From NCBI GenBank assembly GCA_016201505.1, contig JACQCQ010000009.1, positions 1,991-65,990 of the forward strand: a stretch of 64,000 bases of DNA, in the 5' to 3' direction. A program made the position numbers and the translations under genes. The stretch comes from Candidatus Sungiibacteriota bacterium (GTDB lineage: Bacteria; Patescibacteriota; Minisyncoccia; Sungbacterales; JACQCQ01). Below, piece by piece: positions 1-36,099 of the stretch. Under the pieces are notes generated by a model. It saw only the letters and a program-made list of their open reading frames with translations. It searched no databases and was not told the DNA's origin. Positions within the stretch are counted from its first letter, which is position 1; each line of letters opens with the position of its first letter.

Positions 1-280
1 GGGCGAGGCGGAAGGGGGGTGTGGGGGGAATTCCGCCTCGCCCGAGCCGAAGCGAAGCCCCGCCGCCCTGCTCGGTCAGAGCAGAGTCCCGCAAAAAAGT
101 TTTCTTTTCCTTTTAGAAGAAAAAGAAATCGCGCGCCAAATCAAAAAATGCGAAGAAAACTTTTTTGCGGAACAGCGAGCGAAGCGAGCGGCGGCGGGGC
201 GGAGCGTCAGTTTCGCTCAAAGAAATTTCGCGCAAGGTTTAGAATATCCCACAAAAAAAGACGCGCCATCCTCCCATAAA
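1..280. repeat. Low-complexity GC-rich segment sharing a ~30-nt block (cgtttcgctcaaagaaaNttcgcgcaaNgt followed by a TAGAAT/TATAAT -10-like box) with 18036-18068
   Basis: Matched to 18036-18075 by eye. The ORF 19..279 is Arg/Lys-rich low complexity and not credible. Confidence 0.4.
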
Positions 281-304
281 GATGTACGCGTCAGGTTACA
301 CGTC

Positions 305-904
305 ATGAATCAAAAAATAATCTACGTCATGATTGGCGCCGCGGTCGTATCCGGCGGAATTTTGTATGCGAGTTATTATCCCGCAGAACTGGCGAGCCAG
401 TTCGCAAAAACCGCCACTGTCTACGACGAGTCTATTAAAGTCTCGCCGGGCAAGGCCATCAAAGTTGCTGAAGTTATTGATGGCGATACGATTGTCCTCG
501 CTAACGGCGACCACTTGCGCTATATCGGCATGGACACCCCCGAAGAAGTTGACCCGCGAAAGCCGGTGCAGTGCTATGCCAAAGAGGCGGCCGACGCGAA
601 TCGCCGGCTGGTTCAAGGGAAAACGATTATTTTTTATCGGGATGTTTCGGAGCATGATAAATACGGCCGCTGGCTGGGGTATGTCTACCTTTTAGACGGG
701 CCCGATGCCAAAATGAATACATTTGTAAATCGAACGCTGGTCAGGTCCGGCTTTGCCTTTGCCTATAATTACAAGCCGGACACTTCCAAAGCCGCTTTAT
801 TTAAAACCGATGAAACGGCCGCAAAAAATGATCACCTCGGCCTGTGGGCGCATTGCACTGTGACTCGCTTATCGACCGGCCGCGAGCAGACGAATAATTT
901 ATGA
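305..904 (+). CDS. Thermonuclease (staphylococcal nuclease-like) family protein with N-terminal TM/signal
   Basis: SNase-like motifs VIDGDTI, RYIGMDTPE and DKYGRWLGYVY. N-terminal hydrophobic segment. Confidence 0.7.
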   Translation: MNQKIIYVMIGAAVVSGGILYASYYPAELASQFAKTATVYDESIKVSPGKAIKVAEVIDGDTIVLANGDHLRYIGMDTPEEVDPRKPVQCYAKEAADANRRLVQGKTIIFYRDVSEHDKYGRWLGYVYLLDGPDAKMNTFVNRTLVRSGFAFAYNYKPDTSKAALFKTDETAAKNDHLGLWAHCTVTRLSTGREQTNNL

Positions 905-1623
905 ATTTTGCCCTTAGCTACATACGCTATATCGTTTTGACGGGCAGCATTATTCTGGCGGCCGTTTTATTTTTGAGTCTGGTGTCCGGGTCTTCGCTGC
1001 CTGCGAGCAGCTATCTAAAACTCGATCGGCTGTACGGTCTGATCGCCGTTTCATTTCTATACCTTGCCTTACTCGCCACACCCCTCACCCAAGCCTGGCC
1101 AACTATCCCCTATCGTGTTGTTTACGTAAAAGCCCGCCGCGCCATCGGGGTCTCGGCTTTTTTCTTCGGTCTGCTCCACGCACTGATTTCGTTTTTTGTG
1201 TTACTCGGCGGCTATTCCGGCCTTTTCTTTTTAAATTCAACGTCTGCCTTGGCGATAGCGCTCGGATTCCTTCAGCTTTTAATTTTGGCGATCCTAGCTT
1301 CGACCTCATTTGATTCTATGGTGCGAAAACTCGGCACGCGCTGGAAGCAACTACACCGGCTCGTTTACATCGCCGCGTTTTCAATTTTAATTCACGCCAT
1401 CATTCTCGGCAGCGATATCGGTGATTGGTCGAATTCCATTTCTCAAGTCTTCTATATCGCCGTCATATTTCTGTTCGCTCTCGAGGATCTGCGCATATTT
1501 GGGTATCTAAAAAGAAAATTCCCGACATTTTCACGGCGACTGCTTCTGGCCCCCTGTATTCTGGTTTATTTGGTTTTCTCCATTTTGCTCTACCGGTTCA
1601 TGAGTTTCGGCCATGCGCATTAG
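901..1623 (+). CDS. Polytopic membrane protein, ferric-reductase-like transmembrane domain (MsrQ/YedZ-like)
   Basis: Six predicted TM helices with conserved His in helices (LLHALISF, LHRLVYIA, LIHAIILG). Overlaps the upstream stop by 4 nt. Confidence 0.4.
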   Translation: MNFALSYIRYIVLTGSIILAAVLFLSLVSGSSLPASSYLKLDRLYGLIAVSFLYLALLATPLTQAWPTIPYRVVYVKARRAIGVSAFFFGLLHALISFFVLLGGYSGLFFLNSTSALAIALGFLQLLILAILASTSFDSMVRKLGTRWKQLHRLVYIAAFSILIHAIILGSDIGDWSNSISQVFYIAVIFLFALEDLRIFGYLKRKFPTFSRRLLLAPCILVYLVFSILLYRFMSFGHAH

Positions 1624-2137
1624 AAAATGGGTTGAGGTTTTTTCCATTTTCTATTTGCTGTTTGCTATTTGCTTCTCCGCCTCCGCCCATGTTTTAAAGA
1701 GCGACGGCGTAATCGGCGCCGATCTTCACATTGAGCCGGATGACGATCCTTACGTCGGAGCTCCCGCGACGCTGTACCTCGATTTTAAGGACTTGAGCGG
1801 AAAGTTTTTGCTCGATCAATGCGACTGCCGCATGAGTATTTCTCTAGATAACAGCCAGCTGTATGAAGCGAGCCTCGTCTCTTTCACCGCCTCGTACACA
1901 TTTGCCAAACCCGCAAGCTATCTGCTCACGGTGAGCGGAACACCGAAACACATTCGCGCATTCCAGCCGTTTTCACTAGAATATCCAATACGAGTCGCCC
2001 GTATGGTCCCGCCAGCCGCGGCCTCGCAAAAGTCAAAAACTCATAATCATAATTCGATAATTCTGTACGGCATTTCGGCCATCATCACGTTCTTTATTTT
2101 GTACTACGAAAAAAATAAAGCGAAGTTGTTTTCGTAA
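1613..2137 (+). CDS. Hypothetical secreted protein with C-terminal membrane anchor
   Basis: N-terminal signal-like segment, C-terminal hydrophobic helix, and coding-like composition. Confidence 0.4.
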   Translation: MRIRKWVEVFSIFYLLFAICFSASAHVLKSDGVIGADLHIEPDDDPYVGAPATLYLDFKDLSGKFLLDQCDCRMSISLDNSQLYEASLVSFTASYTFAKPASYLLTVSGTPKHIRAFQPFSLEYPIRVARMVPPAAASQKSKTHNHNSIILYGISAIITFFILYYEKNKAKLFS

Positions 2138-2226
2138 CATGCCGGAATCATTATTTACCGCGGCGCTTATCCAGCATTTGCTCCTCCGGCAATTTTTGAC
2201 ATTACCAATGGCGGGAGATAGGCTAT

Positions 2227-2871
2227 TTGAGTATGTCTAAATTTTCCATCGGCATCATGCTCTTAGTTCTGGTTCTTTCCGGCGGGCTTTTTTATATCGC
2301 GAAACATAGACCCGAAGACGCTGCCCATGTCCTAACGCTGGCCGTGACTCCCGGTGATCACGCCACGGGGACGCCGACCGCAAGGGTCACTTTGCTCGAA
2401 TACGGCGATTATCAGTGTCCGGCCTGCGCCGCCTATTTTCCGCTGGTCGAGCAAATCCGCAAAGATTATGCGGGCAAAATCCTCTTTGTCTTCCGCAATT
2501 TTCCGCTTACAGCGATCCATTCAAATGCCGAGATCGCGGCCCTGGCGGCTGAAGCCGCCGGCCTGCAGGGAAAATATTTTGAGATGTATGCAACACTCTA
2601 TCCGCATCAAAACGATTGGTCGGGTTCCCGAAATGCCAAAGATATTTTTATGGGGTATGCCGAAAGTCTCGGCCTCGATAAAACCAAGTTCTCGAACGAT
2701 CTTGATTCAGATAGCTTAAAGAAAAAAATTGAAGATGATGCCAACAGCGGACTGGCCGCGGGCGTCCAGGGCACGCCGACTTTCTTTATCAATGGTAAGT
2801 CGATTCAAAATCCGCAAAGTTATGATGGATTCAAAAAACTCATTGACGACGCCCTCGCCAAGAATCCCTAA
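2227..2871 (+). CDS. DsbA-family thiol:disulfide oxidoreductase (thioredoxin fold)
   Basis: CPAC active site (YGDYQCPACAAYFP), N-terminal TM anchor, and thioredoxin-like length. Confidence 0.8.
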   Translation: MSMSKFSIGIMLLVLVLSGGLFYIAKHRPEDAAHVLTLAVTPGDHATGTPTARVTLLEYGDYQCPACAAYFPLVEQIRKDYAGKILFVFRNFPLTAIHSNAEIAALAAEAAGLQGKYFEMYATLYPHQNDWSGSRNAKDIFMGYAESLGLDKTKFSNDLDSDSLKKKIEDDANSGLAAGVQGTPTFFINGKSIQNPQSYDGFKKLIDDALAKNP

Positions 2872-3298
2872 GTGGCTGGCACCAGCCATTATTATCGTAT
2901 CCGCCATCGGGCTGCTTGATTCCGCCTATCTGGCCATGAAGTATTATTTGGGCGAGCCCGTTACCTGCTCGCTCTTTTGGGGCTGCGAGGCCGTGACCAC
3001 CAGCCAATATGCCGCCGTGGGCCATGTTCCGACGGCACTATTCGGCGTTTTATTTTACCTCGGCACATTTTTACTCGGGATTCTCTATTACGAAACCAAA
3101 AAAGAAATCTATTTGCGCCAATTTTCGTATCTCTCCGCGATTGGATTTTTAGTTTCACTGGGTCTCCTCTGGCTTGAACTGTTTGTCATCCGCGCCATCT
3201 GCGTCTACTGCTCAATTTCAACCCTCGCCTCAACCATTCTTTTCATCTGCGGCGTCTTCAGCCTGCGTAATACATCGAGCGCGCGGAACTCTCCTTGA
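2822..3298 (+). CDS. Vitamin K epoxide reductase (VKOR) family protein
   Basis: VKOR signature CSLFWGCEAV plus C-terminal CVYC within a 4-5 TM protein. Start ATG at 2822 overlaps the dsbA end by ~50 nt (the ORF track gives a longer 2729 start). Confidence 0.7.
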   Translation: MMDSKNSLTTPSPRIPKWLAPAIIIVSAIGLLDSAYLAMKYYLGEPVTCSLFWGCEAVTTSQYAAVGHVPTALFGVLFYLGTFLLGILYYETKKEIYLRQFSYLSAIGFLVSLGLLWLELFVIRAICVYCSISTLASTILFICGVFSLRNTSSARNSP

Positions 3299-3364
3299 AG
3301 TAAAAAGACATTTTGGCATACTGGATGGTAGAGTTTGCCCCCACTCCACGAAGGAGGTGAGGCG

Positions 3365-4108
3365 ATGAGCCTTGTCGGGAGAGTCATCATCGTCGCCAGC
3401 GTTCTGGTTTTCGGATTCTCGTCCTGCGCGCCGTTCAAAGTAACGGGGGTAAAACCCGCCGCCCAGGCACAGGCCGCGGCCAGCGACTCCGCCAAATCGG
3501 CCGCTCAATGCTCGCGTACTGCGCAAGAATCGGTCGGCAAGTTTCTGGCCGGGTTGATGGAGGCCATCTGGAAATCGAGTCTCGTGCTTCTTCGTTCGGT
3601 CTTTCCGCCGGACATGAATCTTCTGCAGGCCTTCAGCGACAAGAACGACGGCGGCGAGGTGGTGAAAGCCATCATGCAATACTCGAAAGAACAAATGGGC
3701 GACCAGGTTGCCCCCGAGTACGATCCGGGGGCCGTCGTCATAGACACCGAAAACCCGCTGGTCAAGCTGGTCACGGTCCGGCGGCATATCGATCACACCA
3801 GTTACAAGACGGGCAAAACCGAGGAGTTGGATGAAGAGCGCCAATTCATGGTCATGTTTGACAGTCCGGACCGAAACTGCATCATCTGGATCCGGGCGAT
3901 TGACCCCGCTTGGAGAAGAATCAGCGAGAGCCAAACCACCGGCTCTCGTTTTATTTTGAATTATTTTTATCCGCCGTCGCAGCAGACCTCAGGCATTAGC
4001 CTAAGGGTGAGTGTGATTATGACAGATAATCTTGAGTCGAGTTTGGGAGTGGATGCTTTGGCGCCTGCTCGCCAGTGCCTGTGTCATAAGGACTCCCTAA
4101 TGTCTTAA
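3365..4108 (+). CDS. Hypothetical lipoprotein (GC-rich islet)
   Basis: Strong SD AAGGAGGTG 7 nt upstream of the ATG at 3365. Signal peptide ending ...GFSSC (lipobox-like). GC-rich codon usage unlike neighbouring genes. Confidence 0.45.
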   Translation: MSLVGRVIIVASVLVFGFSSCAPFKVTGVKPAAQAQAAASDSAKSAAQCSRTAQESVGKFLAGLMEAIWKSSLVLLRSVFPPDMNLLQAFSDKNDGGEVVKAIMQYSKEQMGDQVAPEYDPGAVVIDTENPLVKLVTVRRHIDHTSYKTGKTEELDEERQFMVMFDSPDRNCIIWIRAIDPAWRRISESQTTGSRFILNYFYPPSQQTSGISLRVSVIMTDNLESSLGVDALAPARQCLCHKDSLMS

Positions 4109-4160
4109 GCACACTCTGTATTCTCACTCTCTCCTAAGCTCGTCTAGCAGGCAGATGGCA

Positions 4161-4245
4161 GGCGGGGATTCCGCTGATCTCGCAAGAGTTCGCCTGAAAG
4201 CGAATTGCGAGATGCCACGGCCTCATGGCCGTGTAGCTTCATAAA
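4161..4245. repeat. REP-like double-hairpin element (copy A); copy B at 59195-59265
   Basis: Shared ggattccgcYgatctcgca...gcgaaNtgcgagat (hairpin 1) followed by ccacggcc..ggccgtg (hairpin 2) and gcttcat. Confidence 0.55.
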
Positions 4246-4253
4246 AAAAATAC

Positions 4254-4297
4254 CACCTCGCCCTGATCCGCCCGCTGGCGGGATCGAGGGCGAGGTG
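4254..4297 (-). terminator. Rho-independent terminator for the minus-strand gene 4326..4715
   Basis: ~19-bp GC-rich inverted repeat cacctcgccctgatccgcc/ggcgggatcgagggcgaggtg followed (minus orientation) by a T8 tract. Confidence 0.55.
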
Positions 4298-4325
4298 TGT
4301 GATGCAGGGAGCGCTGCTCCCTTAC

Positions 4326-4715
4326 CTACTTCGGGAAAGCGAAGACGGGTCCGTCGGCCAGGTTCTCGAGCCTCTTCGGCTTCAGCGGATCCACGAACCC
4401 GACCGAGACGGCGGTAGGCACCGTGCTCACGATCGAGGCGGCCGAGTCAATGGCGGTCAACGGCGTGTTAATGACGGCGGCTCCGAGGCCGGTGGCCACA
4501 CCGACGGGGCCGCGCTTGTCCACCTCGTCGCCGACGCTCTTGAAGGGGGCGAGCCCGACGTTGGCTGCGCCGACCACGACGGTCTGGACGCCGTCCCAGA
4601 GGCCCATGAGCGGGTTCGAGTTCACCTTGACCTTGATGTCCGCAGCCGCCGCCGGGGCCGGCGCGACCAGGATTAGAGCGAAAACCGCCATCACTATGAT
4701 GCCGAGTGCTTTCAT
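4326..4715 (-). CDS. Hypothetical small secreted protein (GC-rich islet)
   Basis: Signal peptide MKALGIIVMAVFALILVAPAPAAAAD and an SD-like GGGAGGG upstream. Confidence 0.45.
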   Translation of the reverse strand: MKALGIIVMAVFALILVAPAPAAAADIKVKVNSNPLMGLWDGVQTVVVGAANVGLAPFKSVGDEVDKRGPVGVATGLGAAVINTPLTAIDSAASIVSTVPTAVSVGFVDPLKPKRLENLADGPVFAFPK

Positions 4716-4896
4716 GTTCCCTCCCGGGGGATGGGGTGAACTGCGCCTACTTCGTGTGCTGAAGAAACCATACCACGCTCGTCAGTTCTTTTAAGCGGAC
4801 TTATCCACACCTGTGTATAATTCAAGCCGCAAAAGCACATAGTATAAAGAGAGATACTTCGGGTCGCAGTCAAGCCCAAGAAAAGGGAGGCGGCCA

Positions 4897-5334
4897 ATGA
4901 AGGTGCTCTTTGTCATTCTAGTCATGCTCGCGATGGTTGCCGGATCGGTTCCGGCGGCGGGACAGCCAACCCTGCCTCTCTTCAATCCCTACCCGGGAGT
5001 GACGCAGGAGAAGATGGACACGGACACCAAGTACTGCCTGAACTTCGCCACCGTTCAGGTAACGACGCAAGTGCCCGGCCAAGATAACACCGGCCGCGAC
5101 GCGGCTGTCGGCGCGCTCGGCGGTGCCGCTACCGGTGCCGCCATCGGTGCGATCGCCGGGGGTGGCAAAGGCGCCGGCAAAGGCGCTGCGATCGGTGGTC
5201 TGGCGGGACTCATTTTCGGTGGGCTATCTGGCGCAAGCCAGGCACAGTCGAGTCAAACCCAAACGACGCCCATGCTTGATGGAAATCGATATGCCGCCTG
5301 CATGAACCAGTTGGGATACCCGCGCGTGCCGTAG
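4897..5334 (+). CDS. Glycine-zipper (YMGG/Pcp-like) small secreted/membrane protein
   Basis: GxxxG/AxxxG zipper run AVGALGGAATGAAIGAIAGGGKGAGKGAAIGGLAGLIFGG, signal peptide, and SD GGGAGG upstream. Confidence 0.55.
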   Translation: MKVLFVILVMLAMVAGSVPAAGQPTLPLFNPYPGVTQEKMDTDTKYCLNFATVQVTTQVPGQDNTGRDAAVGALGGAATGAAIGAIAGGGKGAGKGAAIGGLAGLIFGGLSGASQAQSSQTQTTPMLDGNRYAACMNQLGYPRVP

Positions 5335-5359
5335 CCGGTGATCCCCAGGAGGAGAAAAG

Positions 5360-5890
5360 ATGATCACTACGACGACACTGCAGTCAAACGGGGCTGGAGT
5401 TACCGCCAAGTCAAGAAGCATGGGCACTCGCCAGGACGGCCTTGTCGGTTGGAAGCTGGTGCTGCCGATCGTTCTCGGCCTGCTCGCAATGTTTGCCTTC
5501 TCGACGGGGATCATGCTCGCGGCAGATCACGGCGGACGGACGCTGCGTAACGCCGTCATGACGACCTGGCTGCTCGCGTTCTTCTATCCGATCAGCATGC
5601 TCTTCCTGACGCTCGTTCTCGTGCGGATCGGCTGTCAGATCTCGAGATACCCGCCGAGTTCGAAGCTCACCAGCTGGGGATCGAATGCCCCCGGACTCGC
5701 AGTCGGGGTTCTTCTGCTCGCTGTGTTCATTGGTCTAAAGATTCTCACGGGGATGCCGACGAAGACGGGAGCAGAAGCGCTTCAGTCACTGCTCACCTAC
5801 TTCTGCGCCTTGGCGGTCCTGGTGGCCATCTGCGAGGTTGTCCGCTGGCTGGGGCGAGAGATCACGCATCCAGCCTTGAGCCTCATGTAG
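5360..5890 (+). CDS. Hypothetical polytopic membrane protein (GC-rich islet)
   Basis: SD CCAGGAGGAG upstream; 4-5 predicted TM helices. Confidence 0.5.
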   Translation: MITTTTLQSNGAGVTAKSRSMGTRQDGLVGWKLVLPIVLGLLAMFAFSTGIMLAADHGGRTLRNAVMTTWLLAFFYPISMLFLTLVLVRIGCQISRYPPSSKLTSWGSNAPGLAVGVLLLAVFIGLKILTGMPTKTGAEALQSLLTYFCALAVLVAICEVVRWLGREITHPALSLM

Positions 5891-5922
5891 CAGAGGTACT
5901 GCTACATGATCTCGGCTTCGAG

Positions 5923-5964
5923 AGCCGGCCGCTTCCTTCATCTGAAGCGACCGGCTATTTTTTT
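5923..5964 (+). terminator. Rho-independent terminator after 5360..5890
   Basis: Inverted repeat agccggccgcttc/gaagcgaccggct followed by a T7 tract. Confidence 0.55.
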
Positions 5965-6080
5965 GTCAATCGATTTTACTACCACACCAGAAAGCCTCGT
6001 CTCTAAAGACGCGAGTGAATGATTAAAAAATGCCACGCCTTAGTCAGAAAGCCGCGGATTTGCACCCGTGGTGTGGGGGT

Positions 6081-6656
6081 TTACTCAAGATCCGATAGTC
6101 TCCCGATCAAAAATTCAAGCAGGATGAATACCAGCAGACCCGAAAGTAGCGCGATCTCGGTAAATCTCAAATAGTGCCGGACATGAATGAGCGTCGCCGA
6201 TGAAAAAAAGCCCAGCGAAGCTACAATTAAAAACCACATGAAAACAGCCAGAGAATCTTTGCGCCAGATTTTTTTTGGCTCTATATTTAAGAGTCCGGCT
6301 TTGACCACCATCAAATGGCCGAGGCCGTACATAAATTTTGAAATGAAGAGTGTGCGGGCGGTTCGTTCGGCGAGATGAGTGTTGAAACGATTGGTCAGCC
6401 GTTCAATCCAATGGCGGACAAAAAGCCAAACTTTTGTTTCGCGGAGCCAGACGCCGATTTGATACCAGAATGTCTCGCCGATCAGCAGTCCGACAGCAAC
6501 GACCAGAATTGTTTTTGCCGGATTTAAATACCCGAGACGCGCGAGAAAAGCCGCGGTAAATAAAATGATATCGCCTTCAAAAATCATGCCGAAGAATATA
6601 AATGCATAGGCCAAGGGTCGCGAAATAAGTAAATACGGCAATAAAAAAGAGCGCAT
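6081..6656 (-). CDS. DedA/SNARE-associated (VTT domain) membrane protein
   Basis: DedA-like motifs (FIFFGMIFEGD, LARLGYLNP, FISKFMYGLGHL) and topology. Confidence 0.7.
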   Translation of the reverse strand: MRSFLLPYLLISRPLAYAFIFFGMIFEGDIILFTAAFLARLGYLNPAKTILVVAVGLLIGETFWYQIGVWLRETKVWLFVRHWIERLTNRFNTHLAERTARTLFISKFMYGLGHLMVVKAGLLNIEPKKIWRKDSLAVFMWFLIVASLGFFSSATLIHVRHYLRFTEIALLSGLLVFILLEFLIGRLSDLE

Positions 6657-6660
6657 CCGT

Positions 6661-7401
6661 TTAGGGTTTTATCAATTGGTAGAGCTCATCATCCAGTCGG
6701 AACACTTCCTCCGATCTCATATTGCGCGGTCGCGGCAGATGATTTTGGATTATGCGTTCAACCCGGGCTGGCGGTTTTGTCAGCACAGCAATGCGGTCCG
6801 CCATTTCGACCGATTCGTGGATGTTGTGCGAAACCATCACGATCGTAACTTTTCGCTCGGCCCAGACGTCGAGCAGTTCTTGGCGCAGGGCGTCGCCGGT
6901 GAATGAGTCAAGTTCGGAAAACGGCTCGTCCATGAAGATTATTTTTGGGTCGGTGGCGAGCGCCCGGGCAATGCCGACGCGCTGCTTCATGCCGCCGGAC
7001 AATTCATGCGGGTGATGATTTGCGAATTTTTCCAGTCCAAAGATTTTAAGTTCTTGCCAGACGCGTTCTCTTCGTTTCTCCTCCGAAGTCTCGCGCTCGA
7101 GGAGACCGAGTTCGATATTCTCGCCGACCGTCAGCCAGGGCAGAAGCGCAAACTGCTGAAAGACAAAGCTGATATCTTTTTGGCTAAGCCCTGCGCCTAA
7201 GACCCTCTCCCCGGTGTAAGCTGGCTCGATGCCGGCGAAGATGCGGAGCAAGGTTGATTTGCCTGAACCCGAGGGCCCCATTAGGACAAAGAACTCGCCA
7301 AAATGAATTTCCAGGTTGATGTCTTTTAACGCATGAAAAGGACTGGCGTTTTTTCCGTCCATAAAAGTTTTATTTATATTTTTTGCTTCAAGTGCAAACA
7401 T
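6661..7401 (-). CDS. ABC transporter ATP-binding protein (NitT/TauT/SsuB-like family)
   Basis: Walker A GPSGSGKST, signature LSGGMKQRVGIARAL, Walker B IIFMDEP. Confidence 0.85.
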   Translation of the reverse strand: MFALEAKNINKTFMDGKNASPFHALKDINLEIHFGEFFVLMGPSGSGKSTLLRIFAGIEPAYTGERVLGAGLSQKDISFVFQQFALLPWLTVGENIELGLLERETSEEKRRERVWQELKIFGLEKFANHHPHELSGGMKQRVGIARALATDPKIIFMDEPFSELDSFTGDALRQELLDVWAERKVTIVMVSHNIHESVEMADRIAVLTKPPARVERIIQNHLPRPRNMRSEEVFRLDDELYQLIKP

Positions 7402-7404
7402 AGG

Positions 7405-8136
7405 TCAATCGTCGGTCCGCGTGTGCGACCACTCAAGCAACGGCAGCCAGATTATTTTATTGATGAGGAAGATGAGCGCGAGTAATCCCAAAATGCCAAA
7501 AGCGGTCACGGTGGGGTTGCTGGAAAATGATTGGAAAAATTCCCCCAGCCCGCGCGGCGCGCGCGCGATAATTTCGGTGGCCACCAGTCCCTCCCAGCCG
7601 TTGCCCAAGCCGATGATGGAGCCGGTAATAAATCCCGGTGCGGAGGCGGGCAGCAAAAATTTTTTAATATAGGTCAAGCCGCGCAAATCGGCGATGGCTA
7701 CGGCCTCATGCCAGTCGCGCTTAATAAGCCGCAGCGAGCTGGTAATCGTAAAAAAAATCGGCCAGACGATGATCATAAAAAGAAAGAAAATAACAACCAG
7801 ACTAGCGTTCCCAAATACTAAAACGGCAAACGGCAGTGCCGCGAATGTCGGGAAACTCTGTAGCACATCAAAAAACGGCAGGGCCCATTCTGCTTTCTTG
7901 CCGCGGTAGAACAAAACCGCCAGAACCCAACCAACGCAGGAAGACAGAAAATACGCAATCGCAAGCCGCAATACAGATATGCCGACATCGTACGAAAGCC
8001 GCCAGAGCTCAATGTTGGCGTAGGCCGAGAATAATGCCAAAAGAAAAAAGGGCAGAGCGACGACAGCGGCTGTTACAGCCAGATGCCGTGAAGAGGTATA
8101 TATGCCTACCGGGACCCGGTGCGCGTGATGTCTCAT
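7405..8136 (-). CDS. ABC transporter permease (binding-protein-dependent inner membrane component)
   Basis: Six predicted TM helices with an EAA-like loop (IADLRGLTYIKKFLLPASAP). Adjacent to the ATPase with a 3-nt gap. Confidence 0.8.
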   Translation of the reverse strand: MRHHAHRVPVGIYTSSRHLAVTAAVVALPFFLLALFSAYANIELWRLSYDVGISVLRLAIAYFLSSCVGWVLAVLFYRGKKAEWALPFFDVLQSFPTFAALPFAVLVFGNASLVVIFFLFMIIVWPIFFTITSSLRLIKRDWHEAVAIADLRGLTYIKKFLLPASAPGFITGSIIGLGNGWEGLVATEIIARAPRGLGEFFQSFSSNPTVTAFGILGLLALIFLINKIIWLPLLEWSHTRTDD

Positions 8137-10674: not shown

Positions 10675-10787
10675 CCCGTTAGAAGCAGATCGCGATAAAT
10701 GCTGCTTTCCGCTTAATTAGTTTTTTAATTTTATTAAACAAAGTTTTATGTCCAAAGATTCTACCGTGATCGCGGCTTCTAACGGGA

Positions 10788-12022: not shown

Positions 12023-12159
12023 CCCGTTAGAGGCGGACCTGCCTGCCGGCAGGCAGGATCGCGATCAAACGCGTTCGCCGCACAATAATTTTATAAATTG
12101 ACATATATCTAATATATAACTTTTGCGGTCGCGGCCTCTCACGGGATCCATTTTTTTAT

Positions 12160-12234: not shown

Positions 12235-14493
12235 TCAGTGTCGGGGCCAAGGCTCAATCATGAGCAATCTTTTTTCTTTCACGGGCAGATGCTCCCAAAT
12301 GGCTTCGGTCACGTAGGGCATAAAAGGATGCAGTAAAATCAAGCTAGTTTTTAAGATCGTGTAGATCAAAATTTTTGCCGCTTCTCGGTCTTTTTCATCA
12401 TCTGATTGGAGCCGCGGTTTCGCCGACTCGATGATTGTGTCGGCGAAGGTGTGCCAGAAATAATGGTAGAGAGTTTCCGCGGCGTGATGGAACTTAAACG
12501 CTTCCATATCTTGGCTGACTTGTTTTGTGAGCCCATCCAAGTCTTTTAGCAGTTTTTTGTCATGCTTCGTTAGCTTGGCTTTTTTCGCATTCGGCTCCGT
12601 ATCTTCGAGATGAATCAAGACAAACCGCGAAGCATTCCAAATCTTATTGGCAAAATTTCGATAGCCGCGGATTTTATCTTCAGAGATAATCGGATCATTC
12701 CCCGGCGTGTTGCCGACAACCAGCGACATGCGAACGGCGTCGGTGCCGTATAATTCTGCGACACCCAGCGGGTCAATTACATTGCCCTTTGATTTTGACA
12801 TTTTCTGCCGATCCTGATCGCGGACGAGGCCATGCAGATAGACTTTTTTAAACGGCACTTTCCCGGTCCGGTACATGCCAAGCATAATCATGCGAGCCAC
12901 CCAAAAAAAGAAAATATCCCAGCCCGTTTCCATGACTGAAGTCGGGTAAAATTCTTTAAAATCTTTGCCGTCAGGATAGCCGAGCGCCAAAAACGGCCAC
13001 TGGCCGGATGAAAACCAGGTATCAAGAACGTCCGGATCTTGAATAAGATTATGATCGCCGCATGCGGGGCATTGGAGAGGCGCTTCCTTTGAAACAATCG
13101 GGGGGCAGCCCTCCCTCGCTCTGCCGGAGCTTTGGCGGGCGCTCAATTCTCTGGCCGCACCCTCGTCGCGGAGAAAATTGGCGCAAAACCAGGCCGGAAT
13201 GCGAATGCCCCAGCTAATCTGGCGCGAAATATTCCAGTCGCGGAGCCCTGACATCCAATGATAAAAAACTTTTTCAAATCGCTTCGGGATGAACTCGATT
13301 TGTTTTGATTTAATGGCCTTTACGCCGAGATCGCGCAGCGAAGTTTTTGTATTTCCTTTGTCGGTCATTTTTACAAACCACTGCGGGATGACCATCGGCT
13401 CAATAATGCCGCCCGATCTCGCCGAAACCGCGACCGAATGTTTATATGACTCATCGATTTTAGTAACGAGGCCCTTGGCTTGCATATCTTCTACGACCTT
13501 TTTGCGCGCTTCTTCGACTTTCATCCCCTGATAGGGCCCAGCCCGTTCATTCATTCGTCCGTATTTGTCGATGACCTGCTTGATTTCAAGATTATGCCGC
13601 AAGGCGATTTCAAAGTCGGCCGCATCATGCGCCGGCGTTACTTTGACAACACCCGTGCCGAATTCGGGGTCGACCGCCGCATCTGCGATGACCGAAATTT
13701 TTGCTGGTCCCAAAACTGTTTCAATATCAATCATCTGGCCGACAAATTCCCTGTATCGTTTGTCTTTCGGGTTTACCGCGACCGCTGTATCACCAAATTT
13801 AGTCTCGGGACGAACTGTCGCGAGTTCCAACGGCCCGTATTTTATGAAATAGAGCGGATCATTGCGCTCTTCGTATTTTATTTCTAAATCGGAAAGCGCT
13901 GTTTGATCTTTGACCGACCAATTGATGATGCGCCTCCCGCGATAAATGAGACCATCTTGATACATTTGGACAAATGAATCCTCTACTTTTCCAACGATGT
14001 CGGCATCAAGCGTAAATTTTTCTCTAGACCAATCGCATGAAGCGCCCAGTTTGCGTAACTGGTTTTCCATGACGACTTTATTTTTTTGCGTGAACTCGAA
14101 AATTTGGCTGTACAATTCTTCACGCGAAAAATCTGACCAGCGCTTGCCTTCTTTTTCCAACTTTTTTCGATAGACAAATTCGGTTTCGATGCCGGCGTGA
14201 TCGGCGCCCGGCAGCCAAAGCGCTACTCGCCCGCGCATGCGCTCGAACCTCGTCATAATATCCTGAAGCGTCACGAATAAGGCGTGGCCGATATGGAGTG
14301 CTCCGTTCGCATTCGGCGGCGGCATGATGATGGAAAATAGCTCTTTCTGCTTACCGGCCTTACCCCGCGAAACTCCAGTTGAGCGGAGTGGGGGCAGTTT
14401 GTCGGGATTAAAAAAACCAGACGCTTCCCAGCGCTTGTAAATCGCACCTTCTACTTTTTGCGGCAGATAAGCCCCGTTAGGAAATGTATCCAT
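12235..14493 (-). CDS. valS: Valine--tRNA ligase (class I aaRS; compact form without C-terminal coiled coil)
   Basis: PPPNANGALHIGHA (HIGH), KMSKSKGNV (KMSKS) and DWNISRQISWGIRIP; 752 aa. Confidence 0.7.
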   Translation of the reverse strand: MDTFPNGAYLPQKVEGAIYKRWEASGFFNPDKLPPLRSTGVSRGKAGKQKELFSIIMPPPNANGALHIGHALFVTLQDIMTRFERMRGRVALWLPGADHAGIETEFVYRKKLEKEGKRWSDFSREELYSQIFEFTQKNKVVMENQLRKLGASCDWSREKFTLDADIVGKVEDSFVQMYQDGLIYRGRRIINWSVKDQTALSDLEIKYEERNDPLYFIKYGPLELATVRPETKFGDTAVAVNPKDKRYREFVGQMIDIETVLGPAKISVIADAAVDPEFGTGVVKVTPAHDAADFEIALRHNLEIKQVIDKYGRMNERAGPYQGMKVEEARKKVVEDMQAKGLVTKIDESYKHSVAVSARSGGIIEPMVIPQWFVKMTDKGNTKTSLRDLGVKAIKSKQIEFIPKRFEKVFYHWMSGLRDWNISRQISWGIRIPAWFCANFLRDEGAARELSARQSSGRAREGCPPIVSKEAPLQCPACGDHNLIQDPDVLDTWFSSGQWPFLALGYPDGKDFKEFYPTSVMETGWDIFFFWVARMIMLGMYRTGKVPFKKVYLHGLVRDQDRQKMSKSKGNVIDPLGVAELYGTDAVRMSLVVGNTPGNDPIISEDKIRGYRNFANKIWNASRFVLIHLEDTEPNAKKAKLTKHDKKLLKDLDGLTKQVSQDMEAFKFHHAAETLYHYFWHTFADTIIESAKPRLQSDDEKDREAAKILIYTILKTSLILLHPFMPYVTEAIWEHLPVKEKRLLMIEPWPRH

Positions 14494-14873
14494 AGACTCA
14501 CAACAAATTTTATAGGCTGATATTCAGATTTTCAGATATAAATCTCAAGTTAAATTTTCTAACGGGGTAAACTTGCCATGGTCAAATTTCTTCGATATAT
14601 CTAAAGCGGGCTCGTGGTTAGCGTACCATAGAGAAGAACGCTCGTTCCATTCTTGAAATTTCGGCCTTGAGGAGGTGAATAGGCAGTCATGAATTTTTAC
14701 CTCTGCGAATTCAGTGATCTCGAGCCGGTCATCGCGGCGAGACTCGCCGAAGAAGGTTTCTGTCCCGGAATTCCCCAGTGCGGCATTCGGGCTAAGGATT
14801 ATCGCGCGGGGAAGTGCGATCTCGAAGGCTGTCCCCGGCGAGCCCGGGAGAAGGCCTATCTGCAAACCACTGG

Positions 14874-17451: not shown

Positions 17452-17790
17452 ATGGAGCTACAAACCGAAGTCGCAGATATCCGATTGGAGCACCCGTTGA
17501 TGAACGCGGCAGGAACGTGCAAGATGCTGGTGACAAGCCCCAGAAAAACTAGACAGTTGCGGATAAAGAATTATGGCCGGAAGAAAGCTCGGAGAGCCGA
17601 GTTTTCTCCTGTTCGTAAAATGTATGCGGCGGCATTACGCACGGCGAAGACATTCGGGAGTATCGCGAGAGCGGCGCTGTGGCAACGCAAGTGGCCACTG
17701 CCTATCTCGAGCGACACGAGCAAGTGTTCAGTTCACTCCTCGGCGAGCTCCTCGAAGTTGCGAGCGCGTGAATCGCTCGCGGAAAACCGT
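17452..17790 (+). pseudogene. Dihydroorotate-dehydrogenase-like (FMN TIM-barrel) gene remnant with an internal deletion/frameshift
   Basis: Frame A gives LEHPLMNAAGTCK (N-terminal DHODH-like motif). Frame +1 at ~17640-17780 gives GGITHGEDIREYRESGAVATQVATAYL (C-terminal motif). No intact ORF. Confidence 0.35.
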
Positions 17791-18035
17791 CCCACGGGAC
17801 GCTCATCGGCAACAGTGTGCGTCCCTTTCTTTTTAAATTTGAAAGAACAAAGAATTTGCCGCCAAAGCTGAAATTCGCTAGAATTTCAGTAATCCGAATT
17901 CCGCCAAAGAAAAACTTGATTCGCCAGCTGGCGAATGTCAGCGGTGCGGCTCACTTCGACTTCGCTCAGTACGAGCCGCCGCCTTTCCGTCCGCCAGCTG
18001 GCGGATTCGCGGGGGGTTCTCGCCGCAGGCGTTTC

Positions 18036-18731: not shown

Positions 18732-19304
18732 ATGGCCAAAAAAGGCTACGTGACGTTCCCGAAGAAGAAACGTAACAGTAAGTCGAGAGAACCTCTCTCG
18801 AGGGCGGTCGCTGCTGTGTTGGATCCGATTCTCGTCGAGGCTCGTTCAGTCGATGAGGCGAAGTACCATGTCGTGCCGCTTGGGGCCGGTGATACGGCCG
18901 CGTCGCTGGCGCTCGCATATAAGGTCGCACTCGAGGCTTCCCGAGCCACTGGCGTCGTCCTTGAGGCCGCGAAAGCCAAACTTTTCGCGGCCTTTGTCCA
19001 GAAGGGATGGAAAGAGTTCCCGGTCTCACCAGGGGTGGCCTTCAAGGTAACGACTCCCGATGTGGTCTACGTGGATACCGAAGAGCTCCCGCATCTCGGC
19101 GAGCCGATGCACATCGCGCTCACTCGTTCTGCTCGTGTTATTGATCTCGAGAAGGTCGCAAGAGCACTCGTCGAGAAGGACTCACGGGTGACGCATTTGA
19201 CGTCGGGGCAACGGGAGCAACTCATTGTCGTCGAGTGTAAGATGCAAGTCAGCGGGGGTGGCGACAAGGAGTCGCCCCTTGAAGAGCTGGATGAGCTGGG
19301 ATAG
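18732..19304 (+). CDS. Hypothetical protein (GC-rich islet)
   Basis: SD AGGAGGAGG 6 nt upstream of the ATG; Ala/Val/Glu-rich GC-rich composition; followed by a strong terminator. Confidence 0.5.
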   Translation: MAKKGYVTFPKKKRNSKSREPLSRAVAAVLDPILVEARSVDEAKYHVVPLGAGDTAASLALAYKVALEASRATGVVLEAAKAKLFAAFVQKGWKEFPVSPGVAFKVTTPDVVYVDTEELPHLGEPMHIALTRSARVIDLEKVARALVEKDSRVTHLTSGQREQLIVVECKMQVSGGGDKESPLEELDELG

Positions 19305-28010: not shown

Positions 28011-31000
28011 ATGGATATCGGCGAAGTAAAAAATCGAGAAATAGTGGCGGAAATGCAGGAGTCGTATTTGGATTATGCGATGTCGGTTATTGTCTCTCGG
28101 GCTCTGCCCGATGTACGAGACGGATTAAAGCCCGTCCATCGCCGCATTCTCTATGCCATGCATTTACTCCATTTAACGCGCCAATCCAAACATCGAAAAT
28201 CGGCATTGGTGGTTGGCGAGGTGCTGGGTAAATTCCATCCGCACGGGGATGTGGCGGTGTATGACTCAATGGTGCGGCTGGCGCAGGATTTTTCGATGCG
28301 GTACCCCTTAATCGACGGGCAGGGAAATTTCGGTTCGGTGGACGGCGACGGAGCCGCCGCCATGCGGTATTGCATCACCGGCGATACGCGCGTTGTCACA
28401 GATAAAGGCCTTATTCCAATCCAAGAAATTTCCGAGAGCGGGCATGAAGACATCTCAATTTCTGTGTTATCAAAACATAGCATTCAAAATAAAGCGACCA
28501 AATGGTTTGATAGCGGATTTCATCCCACGATTAAAATCGAGACTCGTTCTGGTCAGTCGCTCCAAGGTTCATATAATCACCCTATTTTAATCTGGGCTAA
28601 AAATCCCGTAAGCGGATCGCCTGAATTTCGTTGGAAACTCTTAAGTCAATTGAAAATCGGCGACGTGGCAGTCGTTGATCGCAGGGCCGACACTTTGTGG
28701 CCTAAGGCCGAGCCTTCTCTTTTGCCATACGAGCCCAAAATTCTCGGCAGGAGACAAAAGAAAGTGTTGCCTCAATCTCTGTCTTCTGATCTTAGTTTTC
28801 TCTTAGGTTCATTAACCGCTGAAGGAACCTTAAAAGAACATGCATTGGGATTCTGCAGTAGTGACCTCAATTGGATAGAAGAGTTCAGTCAAAAATGGCA
28901 ACTGGTATTTCCCGATTGCAGATTGCATTCATTCCGGCGCAATCCAAATTCATACGGCAAAAAATCTTATTTTACTCATGAAATTCATTCTCGTCACGTC
29001 ATCGAGTTTCTTAAAAATTTGGGGCTCTCTCCGGTAAAATCAGTCGATCGACAGGTCCCCGGAGTCGTATTTAAAGGCACGAAGTCAACGGTCGCCTCAT
29101 TTTTACGAGCTTATTTTGAAGGCGGCGGGAGCATAAGCTTCAGCGGGAAAATGACAGAGTTGAGCTGTTGCTCGAAGAGTGAGATTCTTTTAAAACAAAT
29201 TCAAATTCTTCTGCTTCGTTTTGGGATCGCCTCCACGCGGCGATATGACCGCTATAAATTAACACACAAAATTTATATTCGCGGACTGGCTAATTGCCGT
29301 CTCTTCCAAGAAGCCATCGGCTTTAATTCCAAAGAGAAACAAGAAACGCTTGAAATGGCTATTCAAAGATTGCATAAAGAATACCCCGCGACAGATTTTA
29401 TTCCGTTCATCAGCGATTTTGTTCGAACGAATGAAAATCGGGCGGTTCGTTTTCGCGAGCGCAGCTTTATGCATAAGCCTAACTTCGATCGGTACGGCTC
29501 TCTTAAAACAAACGGCGAAGCAATTCTTAACCTTCTTCGACCAAGCATTCAATCGGAAATCGGATTTCTGTTTCAAGAATTAATTGAGCAGAATTATTTC
29601 TTTGATCCGGTGGTAAAAATTGAAGCGGGCGGAGTCCACAGAGTCTATTCTATTAAAGTTGAAAGCACCTGCCACTCATTTGTGGCGAACGGGTTTATCA
29701 ACCATAACACCGAAGCACGGATGGCCGATATCACCGCGCTACTCCTTGAAGACATTGATAAAGAGACCGTTGACTTCGCGGATAACTATGACGGGACGCA
29801 AAAAGAGCCGCGCGTTTTGCCGGCGGCGGTGCCCAATTTGTTACTAAACGGCACGCTCGGGATCGCGGTTGGCATGACCACCAATATTCCGCCGCACAAT
29901 TTAACTGAAGTCATTGATGCGGCCGTAACACTGATTGATAAACCCAAATCCACCAATGATGACCTGCTTGAATATGTAAAGGGACCCGATTTTCCGACGG
30001 GCGGCGTCATCTACAACGAAAAAGAAATTAGGGAGGCTTATGCCACCGGCAAGGGCTCGATTGTGATGCGCGGGGTGGCGGAAATTGGCGAAAAGAAAAA
30101 CGGCTATCAGATCATCATCAGCGAAATCCCCTATCAGGTAAATAAATCCGAGTTAATCGAGAAAATTGCCGATCTCGTAAAAGAAAAAAAGATTGAGGGC
30201 ATCCGCGATCTGCGTGATGGGTCGGATCGGGAAGGTATGCGCATTGAGATTGACCTAAAAGCCGACAGCTATCCGCAGAAAGTTTTAAATAATCTATTTA
30301 CGCATACGGATCTAGAAAAGCGCTTTCATATCAATATGTTGGCGCTCGTCGACGGCATCCAGCCGCAGGTTCTGTCGCTTAAATCGATCCTGGAGGAATA
30401 TTTAAAGCACCGATTTCAAATTGTCACGCGGCGCAGCACATTTGATCTGGCCCGCGCCAAAGACCGCGCTCATATTTTAGAAGGACTGAAAAAAGCGCTC
30501 GACAATATTGATAAAGTTATCGACACGATTAAAAAATCGGCCGATCGGGACGTAGCGCGCGATAATTTAATCAAAAAGTTTTCTTTGTCCGAAAAACAAG
30601 CACTCGCCATTTTGGAGATGCGGCTGGCCACACTTGCTGGTCTCGAGCGGCAGAAAATCGAGGCTGAATTAAAAGAAAAACTGGCCTTAATCCGCGATCT
30701 GGAAGCCTTACTAAAAGATCCAGCCAAAATTCAGACGGTGATTAAAAAAGAATTAGTAGCTACACGCGAGAAATACGGTGATGAGCGGAAGACGAAAGTC
30801 ATCAAATCCGCCGTTCGCGAATTTTCCGATGAAGATTTGATTCCCGAAGAGGAGACACTGGTGGTGGTGACCCGCGGCGGCTACATCAAGCGGGTAAAAC
30901 CGGAATCCTACCGCATGCAAAAGCGCGGCGGCAAGGGGTTGATTGGCATTGAAACGAAAGAAGAAGACGTGGTCGAACATCTAGTTTCGGCGAGCACTCA

Positions 31001-31787
31001 TTCGGATCTTTTGTTTTTTACCTCATCCGGCAAAGTTTTTCAGGTGAAAGCCTATGAGATTCCCGAAGCCTCCAGGACCGCCAAGGGCAAGGCCATTTTT
31101 AATTTCCTTTCGGTAAATCAAGATGAATTAATCACCTCGATTTTAGCTGCTCCCAAAACGCGGGCGCGCCGCGGCGAAAGAGAAAAATCGGAATTCTTTG
31201 TGATGCTAACGCGCCGCGGCGTGATTAAAAAAGTAGAGGCCTCGGCTTTTGGCGATGTGCGACATTCGGGCTTAATCGCCATCGGCTTAAAATCAGATGA
31301 TACGCTGGGCTGGGTTAAATTAACCAATGGCGCCCATGATATTATCGCGGTCACTAAATTGGGCCAGGCCATCCGGTTCTCCGAGCGTGATGTCCGAGCC
31401 ATGGGACGTACCGCCTCCGGCGTTACCGCCCTGCGGCTTAAAAAATCAGACGAAGTCGTCGGCATGGACGTGGTGATTGATGCCGGCGCTAATCTTTTGG
31501 TTATCATGTCGCAAGGCTACGGCAAGAAGACCCCCTTAAAACAATATAAGCGGCAGAAACGCGGCGGCTCGGGCATTAAAACAGCCAAAGTCGTACCCAA
31601 AAACGGCTACGTCATTTCGACTCACGTCATCCAGGCTGAAGAAACCCAACTCGTCTGCATTTCGCGCAAAGGCCAGGTCATTCGGATTGAGCTTTCGGCC
31701 ATTCCAACGCTCGGCCGCGCCACCCAGGGTGTTCGCATCATCCGACTCGAGACCTCGGACGCGCTCGCCTCAATGACGACGTTTTAA
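28011..31787 (+). CDS. gyrA: DNA gyrase subunit A containing an in-frame intein (extein ~812 aa)
   Basis: GyrA N-terminus ([21 protein letters not shown]), active-site AAMRY followed by CITGDTRV (intein N-terminus). ...FINHN|TEARMADI restores the GyrA sequence, and the C-terminal beta-pinwheel repeats follow. Confidence 0.9.
28371..29708 (+). mobile_element. GyrA intein (446 aa) with LAGLIDADG homing-endonuclease domain
   Basis: Cys1 after MRY (canonical gyrA-a insertion site) and C-terminal HN followed by Thr+1. Internal LAGLIDADG-like blocks [10 protein letters not shown] and [12 protein letters not shown]. Confidence 0.8.
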
Positions 31788-35590: not shown

Positions 35591-36013
35591 ATGCTGGAAA
35601 GTACTCAATTTTTGGTTAAGAATTTTATGAAATATCACTCATTACTCAAAATAGGCACTGTGGCGACAGTTGTTGTTTCGTTAGGTCTTTTTATCCCGCA
35701 AATCTCCGGTGCGGCTGCGGTCCCTACGCCATCGTATGCGCCAAATAATACCGGCACCATAAGTGATTTTCCGAATTTTATCTCGAGACTAGGTGGGAAC
35801 GTTGCTAATATTTTTGGGACACTTATTTTGGCTATTTCTGTGATTATGATTCTCTATTCAGCTTTTTTATTTCTCACTGCACAGGGTGATGCGACAAAAC
35901 TTACCACAGCTCGTAACGTGTTACTTTTTGCTTTGGTTGGTGTAGCAGTAGCATTGCTGGCATATATTCTGCCGAATGCTGTAAGTAATTTTGTTCAAAC
36001 AAACGTACAATAG
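35591..36013 (+). CDS. T4SS-pilin-like protein (single module)
   Basis: Signal peptide then ILAISVIMILYSAFLFLTAQGDATKLTTARNVLLFALVGVAVALLAYILPN. Possible start at 35627. Confidence 0.5.
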   Translation: MLESTQFLVKNFMKYHSLLKIGTVATVVVSLGLFIPQISGAAAVPTPSYAPNNTGTISDFPNFISRLGGNVANIFGTLILAISVIMILYSAFLFLTAQGDATKLTTARNVLLFALVGVAVALLAYILPNAVSNFVQTNVQ

Positions 36014-36032
36014 TCATACAGCAAACAAGAAA

Positions 36033-36093
36033 CCGCCCAGCTCCCCTTGCGGGGAACTGGGCGGTCTTCGTTTCGCGGGGCATCCGCGAAACG
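36033..36093. terminator. Two consecutive hairpins forming a bidirectional terminator between convergent genes
   Basis: ccgcccagctcccc-ttgc-ggggaactgggcgg and cgtttcgcgg-ggcat-ccgcgaaacg. Confidence 0.6.
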
Positions 36094-36099
36094 GTTGGG

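Follow-up and report, generated by a model that had tools for sequence, protein, structure and literature searches.

A large part of bacterial diversity belongs to the candidate phyla radiation (CPR), a group in which gene expression and gene exchange are barely known. In other bacteria, acquired islets are recognised within the amelioration framework of Lawrence and Ochman by their atypical composition, the acquired DNA usually being AT-richer, and lineages poor in Shine-Dalgarno (SD) sites or rich in leaderless mRNAs are represented by the non-SD genomes of the Bacteroidota type and by the leaderless-rich Actinobacteria and Deinococcus. We analyzed a stretch of 64,000 nt (hereafter the window) inside a 140,836-bp contig of a Candidatus Sungbacteria metagenome-assembled genome (MAG; Parcubacteria, CPR; locus tags HY220_021xx-024xx), in which a preliminary description had noticed GC-rich islets of SD-led genes among host genes devoid of SDs. 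We found that the window holds two classes of genes that differ both in composition and in their translation-initiation signals, and that a GC-rich, SD-led class recurs in other CPR genomes.

A set of 60 window genes was curated, and each gene was scored for GC, GC at third codon positions (GC3) and SD, the last by the energy of the duplex that the 16S tail ACCUCCUUA forms with the 17 nt preceding the start. With GC-rich genes defined by a GC of at least 0.55 and strong SDs by an SD/anti-SD duplex of −9 kcal/mol or lower, a strong SD preceded 11 of the 12 GC-rich genes and 1 of the 48 others (Fisher p = 4e-10). The assertion that host genes have no recognisable SD was therefore correct for nearly all of them, and the two initiation styles that had been proposed for this one stretch are tightly coupled to composition. 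GC was not uniform along the window: its mean was 0.50, but the stretch 3500-6000 reached 0.55-0.62 and 36000-38500 reached 0.57-0.61. Since SDs arise by chance upstream of only 2.7% of internal ATG or GTG codons in the GC-rich regions (binomial P ~6e-17), the SD signal is not produced by GC-richness; the islet genes carry a GGAGG-type motif 4-8 nt upstream of their starts more often than chance provides. The background genes are ordinary housekeeping genes (valS, recG, ftsH, gyrA, rplJ/rplL, tig, clpP and that of RNase Y) together with dsbA-VKOR, ABC transporter genes and genes resembling pilins of type IV secretion systems (T4SS).

The codon-usage and tetranucleotide analyses suggested in the preliminary description also separated the islet genes from the background. 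In a leave-one-out log-likelihood ratio of codon usage, all 13 SD-class genes scored above all 47 others (U = 611 = 13 x 47). GC at two-fold sites was 0.34 in the background, which prefers GAT, GAA, TTT, AAA, AAT and TAT, and 0.63-0.66 in the SD class, which prefers GAC, GAG, TTC, AAG, AAC and TAC; at four-fold sites GC was similar (0.67 vs 0.72). The GC-normalised tetranucleotide correlation between islets and background was 0.63, compared with 0.96-0.98 for background chunks of the same size. Among the compared loci, the best tetranucleotide match to the islets (r = 0.77) was L006, from the 55%-GC Sungbacterium GCA_016203655.1. Islet codon usage was also near that of L006, with generic genomes of 56-61% GC fitting about equally, and the background tetranucleotide signature matched those of CPR relatives. 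In GC, codon usage and oligonucleotides alike, the islets thus lie off the resident genome, as acquired islets do. Translational selection is unlikely to be behind the codon difference, because the highly expressed genes rplJ, rplL, tig, clpP and ftsH keep background codon usage and most members of the SD class are small ORFans. Codon usage in the background is unusual in its own right, combining a two-fold GC of 0.34 with a four-fold GC of 0.67, a pattern milder in L006 (0.56 and 0.78). The window also contains AT-rich outlier genes (GC 0.39-0.43) at 35591-36013, 40709-41062 and 48611-49027, namely an ORF for a T4SS-pilin-like protein, one for a 23S-rRNA-intervening-sequence protein and one for a free-standing LAGLIDADG endonuclease. 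With these besides the GC-rich islets, the genome is compositionally mosaic in both directions.

The second class comprises at least nine small cassettes with 15 genes, about 17% of the coding DNA, at a GC of 0.54-0.71. Each of the eight islets originally proposed holds at least one SD-led, GC-rich open reading frame (ORF). Islet 1, islet 2 and the smaller cassettes are as follows (aa, amino acids; TM, transmembrane).

3299 to 5970: islet 1, with the GC-rich, SD-led units A, B and C-D, between the VKOR gene (2822-3298) and a DedA/VTT gene (6081-6656)
3351 to 3359, forward: SD of gene A, AAGGAGGTG, with its GGAGG core 7 nt before the ATG at 3365; duplex −13.0 kcal/mol
3365 to 4108, forward: gene A, 247 aa, ORFan with a lipoprotein-like signal peptide (…VFGFSSC); GC 0.56, GC3 0.69
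4326 to 4715, reverse: gene B, 129 aa, secreted ORFan (signal peptide); GC 0.66, GC3 0.88
4720 to 4726 and 4250 to 4297, reverse: signals of gene B, the SD GGGAGGG and the terminator hairpin
4897 to 5334, forward: gene C, 145 aa, secreted glycine-zipper protein; GC 0.63; SD GGGAGG at 4885-4890
5360 to 5890, forward: gene D, 176 aa, membrane ORFan with four TM segments; GC 0.60, GC3 0.76; SD AGGAGGAG at 5347-5354
36100 to 38551, reverse: islet 2, operon G-F-E, GC 0.56-0.61
37955 to 38551, reverse: gene G, immunoglobulin-like (Big_1-like) protein
37347 to 37958, reverse: gene F, soluble ORFan with a weak SD, its start overlapping the upstream stop
36100 to 37347, reverse: gene E, seven TM segments and a C-terminal domain; SD in the overlapping GGAGGAGG
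17452 to 17871, forward: SD-led ORF (TAGGAGGAT), 139 aa, GC 0.54, basic low-quality sequence
18732 to 19304, forward: SD-led ORF (CAGGAGGAGG), 190 aa, GC 0.58, directly upstream of recG
44803 to 45129, forward: ORF with an SD-like GGGGGTG, 108 aa, one TM segment, GC 0.71, GC3 0.86, upstream of rplJ
46726 to 46884, reverse: SD-led ORF (AGAGGAGG), 52 aa; terminator at 46684-46710
48197 to 48430, reverse: SD-led ORF (TAGGAGGT), 77 aa, Cys-rich, GC 0.61, adjoining tRNA-Val
49888 to 50592, reverse: SD-led ORF (AAAGGAGGTG, GTG start), 234 aa, GC 0.59, between tRNA-Pro and tRNA-Gly
61379 to 61930, reverse: gene H, SD-led (AAAGGAGGT), 183 aa, secreted ORFan, GC 0.58, divergent from purB
62057 to 63409, forward: purB-like adenylosuccinate lyase gene, SD GGGAGGG, GC 0.57, GC3 0.69, SD-class codon usage

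A perfect GGAGG core lies 4-8 nt from the start in 13 of the 14 SDs when the second core of gene E's overlapping motif is counted, the first core sitting 11 nt from the start; the fourteenth SD is GGGGG at a spacing of 7 nt. The statement that every islet ORF carries a canonical SD holds with one exception, gene F, which is translationally coupled to the gene upstream. ORF 17452-17871 is an exception of another kind, having an SD at a GC near background, and it is possibly a decayed gene; that it is a remnant of pyrD is a weak idea, the resemblance being confined to 25 N-terminal residues (E = 0.18) and tblastn giving no support. The GC of about 58-62% estimated by eye agrees with the two big islets, which span 0.55-0.62, and is too high for some of the small ones, which are single small genes with a modest regional GC of 0.53-0.58.

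Within islet 1 the rise in GC is limited to the coding segments. Background GC prevails in the spacers (3925-4150 and 4720-4890), and we therefore regard the islet as three separately bounded units (A, B and C-D). No stop codon ends the ORF of gene A ahead of the gene's terminator-like hairpin (3923-3950, with a T-run after it), and the frame runs for about 55 codons into a repeated element, described below. These last ~55 codons are probably not native protein, and either the stop codon was lost or the 3′ end was remodelled. Gene D is followed by a hairpin and T-run at ~5921-5965. Single-sequence AlphaFold2 models were unusable (predicted local distance difference test scores of 44 for gene A and 50 for gene E), and the UniRef label 'exosortase-associated TIGR04073' for gene B, which was not reproduced with NCBIfam even at E ≤ 10, was dropped as a clue to the donor. 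The products of the small islets are short ORFans, either basic, Cys-rich or membrane proteins, and the islet cargo overall consists mostly of small secreted or membrane ORFans and purB.

The two classes also differ in what precedes their starts. At the heads of operons lacking an SD, a TATAAT hexamer (at least 5/6 match) starting 10-15 nt before the ATG was found 9 times against 1.4 expected (P = 1.6e-5), and TANNNT at the same distance 13 times against 4.0 expected (P = 2.7e-4). Such a −10 box near the ATG is present in about one third of the operon-leading background genes; the internal background genes are closely packed and likewise lack SDs. A −10 box at this distance places the transcription start at or beside the AUG and so predicts leaderless mRNAs. 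Judged from this promoter geometry and the missing SDs, many background genes are probably leaderless. No SD gene has a −10 box abutting its ATG. The SD-class units instead have canonical sigma-70-type promoters 35-80 nt upstream, their own leaders and their own terminators. Examples are TTGACA-17-TATATT before 46884, the extended −10 TGTGTATAAT about 80 nt upstream of gene C, and TTGACA-17-TATAAG, with a terminator, for ORF 44803-45129. A search for an upstream motif common to the SD-class genes returned none besides the SD, so that a dedicated regulon for this class is not supported.

In at least 25 loci of Parcubacteria type fetched via valyl-tRNA synthetase (ValRS), SD-like starts made up about 11%, near the caller's chance level, and a −10 box lay at 10-15 nt in 25-45% of the non-SD genes. 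In control loci from outside the CPR, SDs preceded 20-60% of the genes and had no consistent link to GC, except in three alphaproteobacterial loci with SDs at 0-7% at the threshold used. Of Parcubacteria 16S rRNAs, only 48% are reported to have a detectable anti-SD motif (Tsurumaki et al. 2022, PMC9297842), and the SD-poor Parcubacteria loci with −10 boxes near the ATG are consistent with this reported partial absence (PMC9297842). No rRNA gene, and hence no 16S 3′ end, occurs in the window or in any compared locus. The retention of SDs on purB and purC across CPR genomes suggests that the ribosome may read them, and we infer from these sequence patterns a functional use of the islet SDs. In the window, rplJ-rplL (45484-46457) lacks rplK-rplA ahead of it, as it does in L006. 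The slot upstream is occupied by the SD-led ORF 44803-45129, which is bracketed by hairpins of CTACNGTCTAC-like short repeats (44500-46100). This arrangement may be tied to the Parcubacteria subgroup lacking uL1 and the anti-SD (PMC9297842).

Considering that MAG contigs can be chimeric, the islets might be an artefact of assembly or binning in which a CPR genome of ~49% GC was joined to foreign DNA of ~60% GC. We compared the junctions of islet 1, islet 2 and the H-purB islet (61379-63409) with Logan single-run assemblies of SRR12113410 and SRR12113409, which are independent of the MAG assembly. Contig L001 reproduced window positions 223-4161 at 100% identity and covers the left junction of islet 1. 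Contig L003 reproduced 4134-7000 at 100% identity with the right junction, which was seen in two samples, and L002 reproduced 35652-38841 at 100% identity with both junctions of islet 2. The H-purB islet is spanned by L031 and L032 (60428-63180 and 61358-63729). Across the assemblies of two separate runs, all tested junctions were reproduced at 99.96-100% identity. The sole Logan break, at 4134-4161 within islet 1, where L001 and L003 overlap by 28 nt, lies directly upstream of the second module of the repeated element; it speaks for the artefact, and it could also be a graph branch caused by strain heterogeneity in islet 1.

That element had been described as resembling repetitive extragenic palindromic (REP) sequences and as recurring in background DNA. 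It does recur, and it is larger than was thought, each copy having a second module.

3965 to 4245, forward: copy 1 of the repeated element, in islet 1, with module 1 at 3965-4010, module 2 at 4164-4245 and an insert of ~100-150 nt between them
59100 to 59266, forward: copy 2, with modules at 59100-59150 and 59195-59266, between convergent background genes beside clpP

In the predicted fold of copy 2 (z = −6.2) a long-range helix links both modules and is followed by a two-hairpin domain, and copy 1 (z = −3.0) retains these helices via compensatory changes, with a central insert. The element is short, hairpin-forming, intergenic and repeated between convergent genes, like REP sequences, bacterial interspersed mosaic elements and small structured RNAs. 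Unlike the first two, it has only two copies, two modules on a long-range helix and a variable insert, and it matches no Rfam family. Compensatory changes at an overall identity of 71% fit a structured RNA better than a REP sequence, and we propose the element as a candidate new small structured RNA. Its presence both in an islet spacer and in background DNA supports the co-residence of islet and background in one genome. Since about 18 precise false joins would be required, the spacers of islet 1 are at background GC and hold this repeat, and the same architecture occurs in unrelated CPR assemblies, chimerism is largely refuted, as the preliminary description had argued, and we consider it extremely unlikely that the islets are such an artefact.

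The recurrence is clearest in L029 (GCA_034680565.1). Its background has a GC of 0.36-0.44, no SDs and −10 boxes at the ATG, and a 6-kb block (an ORF, pyrD, pyrF, ORFs and purB) stands at 0.51-0.55. All six genes of at least 90 aa in this block have a strong SD and exceed the background GC by 0.12-0.16, and smaller such ORFs are present too. In L056 (GCA_964626675.1; GC 0.46), purB, purC-purE and small ORFs are SD-led at a GC of 0.49-0.56, compared with 0.45-0.51 for the non-SD genes grpE, dnaK, dnaJ, rplI, rpmA and uppS (p = 0.001). A milder form of the GC-rich, SD-led class occurs in L006, L030 and L058. The GC and GC3 of purB lie above the local non-SD background in 8 of 8 CPR loci (by 0.02 to 0.11 in GC, over backgrounds of 0.40-0.58), and purB is SD-led in six of the eight, in orthologs 42-58% identical to the window copy. 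The islands of different genomes share no cargo besides purB. Among the few L029 genes of background composition with an SD-like site (AAAGGTGG) is rpsU (bS21; 2287-2526), which recalls the autoregulation of bS21 in SD-poor Bacteroidota.

The only islet gene with a recognisable family is purB. It had 324 homologs, and all named matches among the best ~100 were Patescibacteria at 42-58% identity (Sungbacteria, Spechtbacteria, Colwellbacteria, Kerfeldbacteria and Parcubacteria). The window copy is nearer to those on other contigs (56-58%) than to that of L006 (48%), a difference that may hint at incongruence with the species tree. Core synteny between the window and L006 is preserved (ftsH 71%, the adjacent gene 61%, recG 50% and rplL 64% identical); L006 has none of the window's islet ORFs, and a different SD-led ORF lies inside its ftsH-recG block. 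From the composition of the islets and the CPR affinity of purB we infer acquisition and the type of donor: the islets would be laterally acquired accessory cassettes from a gene pool among GC-richer, SD-using CPR and not from the host, a reading to which we give about an even chance. The earlier proposal of repeated acquisition from a high-GC donor survives in part, in that the composition, the cassettes' own signals and their absence from the L006 block fit acquired cassettes; a donor was not found.

Several results weigh against acquisition from a CPR gene pool. Genes B and E had no homologs among 5.8 billion protein clusters, a search space in which the Logan assemblies of SRR12113409 and SRR12113410 are included. 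When B was scanned with HMMER against the full 1.84 billion representatives, the only matches were weak and compositional, to Calx-beta-like repeats in giant proteins. A ValRS-anchored search of GTDB genomes and JGI metagenomes for a relative close enough to display an unoccupied site for islet 1 gave none above 58% ValRS identity. The islets and their adjoining genes yielded no integrase, transposase or recombinase, and flanking direct repeats or target-site duplications at the islet boundaries did not exceed chance. Plasmid and phage searches with islet 1 DNA and a viral-contig search with protein A had no match, nor did PADLOC, and PHROGs gave three weak low-complexity matches to the glycine zipper only. 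The purB offset tracks genome GC in all eight CPR loci and looks like a stable property, which a single recent donor does not predict, because the offset follows the recipient's GC among highly diverged orthologs. Four-fold GC is common to both classes in the window and in L006, where nearly all of the difference lies at two-fold sites; a random foreign donor would not be expected to give this pattern.

The same searches bear on two other sources. The epibiont's host lineage had been put forward as an obvious donor, and the islets might then be recent imports from a non-CPR organism, either this host or some other free-living bacterium of high GC, such as a member of the Chloroflexota or Proteobacteria. 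Islet codon usage and GC do fit non-CPR loci of 56-61% GC as well (L019, an Anaerolineae locus, and L025-L028, from Chloroflexota), SD use is normal in those genomes, and glycine-zipper/OmpA-like and Big_1-like domains are common in diderm bacteria. The search for donor taxa with the islet proteins, however, led for purB, among its named nearest relatives, to CPR alone, without a distinct high-GC donor, and for B and E to no homolog. A transfer recent enough to preserve composition should have left homologs in a donor from the same samples. Since the clusters include assemblies of those samples, a recent co-resident host donor is unlikely. The islet tetranucleotides, moreover, match L006 at least as well as any non-CPR locus. 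We therefore regard the host as an improbable source and do not retain this part of the earlier proposal. Still less probable is an origin of the islets as remains of a mobile element such as a prophage, plasmid or integron. The small cassette-like units with their own signals would suit such an origin, as would the positions of 48197-48430 by tRNA-Val and of 49888-50592 between tRNA-Pro and tRNA-Gly. These two are the only islets that adjoin tRNA genes, other hallmarks of mobility are lacking, and no phage, plasmid or defence family was recognised.

The recurrence of purB points to a further possibility, that the islets are a native, maintained second class made up of nucleotide-metabolism genes (purB, purC, pyrD and pyrF) and accessory envelope proteins expressed from leadered, SD-dependent mRNAs. 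Higher GC3 would then be held by selection, for example through release from the constraint of unstructured, A/U-rich mRNA that SD-independent initiation puts on core genes, or by GC-biased gene conversion where accessory genes recombine often. The elevated GC and GC3 and the frequent SD of purB despite deep divergence, with an offset that follows genome GC, agree with a maintained class, as do the recurrence of SD-led genes of the same functional group across genomes, the four-fold GC shared by the classes in the window and L006, and the missing mobility signatures and donors. Maintenance accounts less well for tetranucleotides that differ strongly after GC normalisation, more than is expected for expression classes, and for islet cargo that, purB apart, is not common to the genomes. 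In the ValRS-anchored CPR loci the few SD-like genes come without a GC shift, and in L029 and L056 the classes differ at four-fold sites as well. GC3 drops towards the 5′ end by the same 0.06 in both classes, so that a global constraint towards unstructured mRNA is not evident. We consider a maintained class doubtful on this evidence, although a real contender. The ORFan cargo speaks for acquisition, as does the strong difference in oligonucleotides, and the purB data speak for a maintained class or a long-lived CPR gene pool.

If the islets were acquired from such a CPR pool, resident core genes would start translation without SDs, many of their mRNAs beginning at the AUG, and cassettes would enter the chromosome with no need of site-specific machinery, for example through transformation together with illegitimate or homology-facilitated recombination. 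The cassettes could be expressed autonomously in the recipient because each would bring a leadered promoter and an SD still readable by the recipient's ribosome. Their most likely source would be a pool of genes that circulates among CPR/Parcubacteria with higher GC and SD use, a non-CPR host being less likely. As a tentative generalisation, SD-led translation might survive in Parcubacteria with SD-less core genes, in genomes of ~40-58% GC, only in a GC3-elevated class of purB, purC, pyrD, pyrF and fast-turnover envelope ORFans.

Other features of the window concern the background genes and the islet edges. Inverted arms ATCCCGTTAGA…TCTAACGGGAT form stems of 11-18 bp around variable AT-rich interiors of 40-210 nt at 10675-10786, 12023-12145, 14473-14566, 44601-44658, 47837-47942, 56803-57239 and 49673-49681, and in L006 at 2762-2790 and 7350-7470; the motif is found almost nowhere in 56 other loci. 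Arm matches with at most one mismatch number 25, against 11.5 +/- 3.3 in shuffles. One stem-bounded unit encloses tRNA-Val, and at four background genes (10674 and 12022 on the reverse strand, 57011 and 57240 on the forward strand) the 3′ arm passes directly into the start codon (GGGATG). These AUCCCGUUAGA/UCUAACGGGAU stems may be RNA-processing sites that release the tRNA or make mRNAs start at the AUG. A 107-nt stem-bounded unit is perfectly duplicated in tandem at 56797-57010, directly upstream of ORF 57011-57235, an ORF that has the same arms on either side and is possibly not a genuine gene. The gyrA gene (28011-31787) contains an intein that bears a LAGLIDADG homing-endonuclease domain. 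A sequence of 34-44 nt containing the promoter and start of a PaaX-like gene at 38845-39393 (38811-38857) recurs inverted right after the gene (39407-39440) and again, 89% complementary, at 48052-48095 by tRNA-Val; both sites lie at edges of SD islets.

If SD-led translation does survive only in such a GC3-elevated class, this would mean either that CPR bacteria exchange a dedicated gene pool equipped with its own signals for expression, or that one very small genome actively maintains two regimes of translation and codon use. The SD motif would be a simple, sequence-only marker for the accessory or exchanged gene fraction of these genomes, and should the lineage lack a 16S anti-SD, the SDs would be fossils marking the direction and recency of transfer. 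The findings also raise a testable question, namely which genes, if any, are still translated in these lineages by ribosomes that use the anti-SD. A gene finder trained with a single ribosome-binding-site model per genome would mis-call starts in one of the classes, and if the pattern is general, it bears on the spread of purine and pyrimidine enzymes among episymbionts.

In our literature search we found no paper on SD presence coupled to a distinct compositional class in such a genome, or on its recurrence across the CPR. The nearest described systems each share part of the pattern. Like the acquired islets of the Lawrence-Ochman framework, those of the window show sharp local deviations in GC, GC3, codon usage and oligonucleotides, carry accessory or ORFan cargo, are patchily distributed and in some cases lie by tRNA genes. 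They differ in being GC-richer than the recipient and very small (0.2-2.6 kb), in lacking an integrase and direct repeats, in being marked by a different translation-initiation signal, and in the GC offset of purB, whose persistence among deeply diverged genomes is not predicted by amelioration. Integron cassettes are similarly short, mostly single-ORF, without an assigned function and inserted between unrelated genes, whereas the islets have their own promoters, occur in both orientations and are scattered, with no array and no integrase nearby; the lack of boundary repeats above chance argues against common recombination sites. As in SD-poor and leaderless lineages, the background genes of the window are without SDs and the −10 box abuts the start in many operon heads. 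In the leaderless-rich model bacteria, by contrast, leadered SD genes share the composition of their genome, whereas here the SD-led minority is compositionally distinct.

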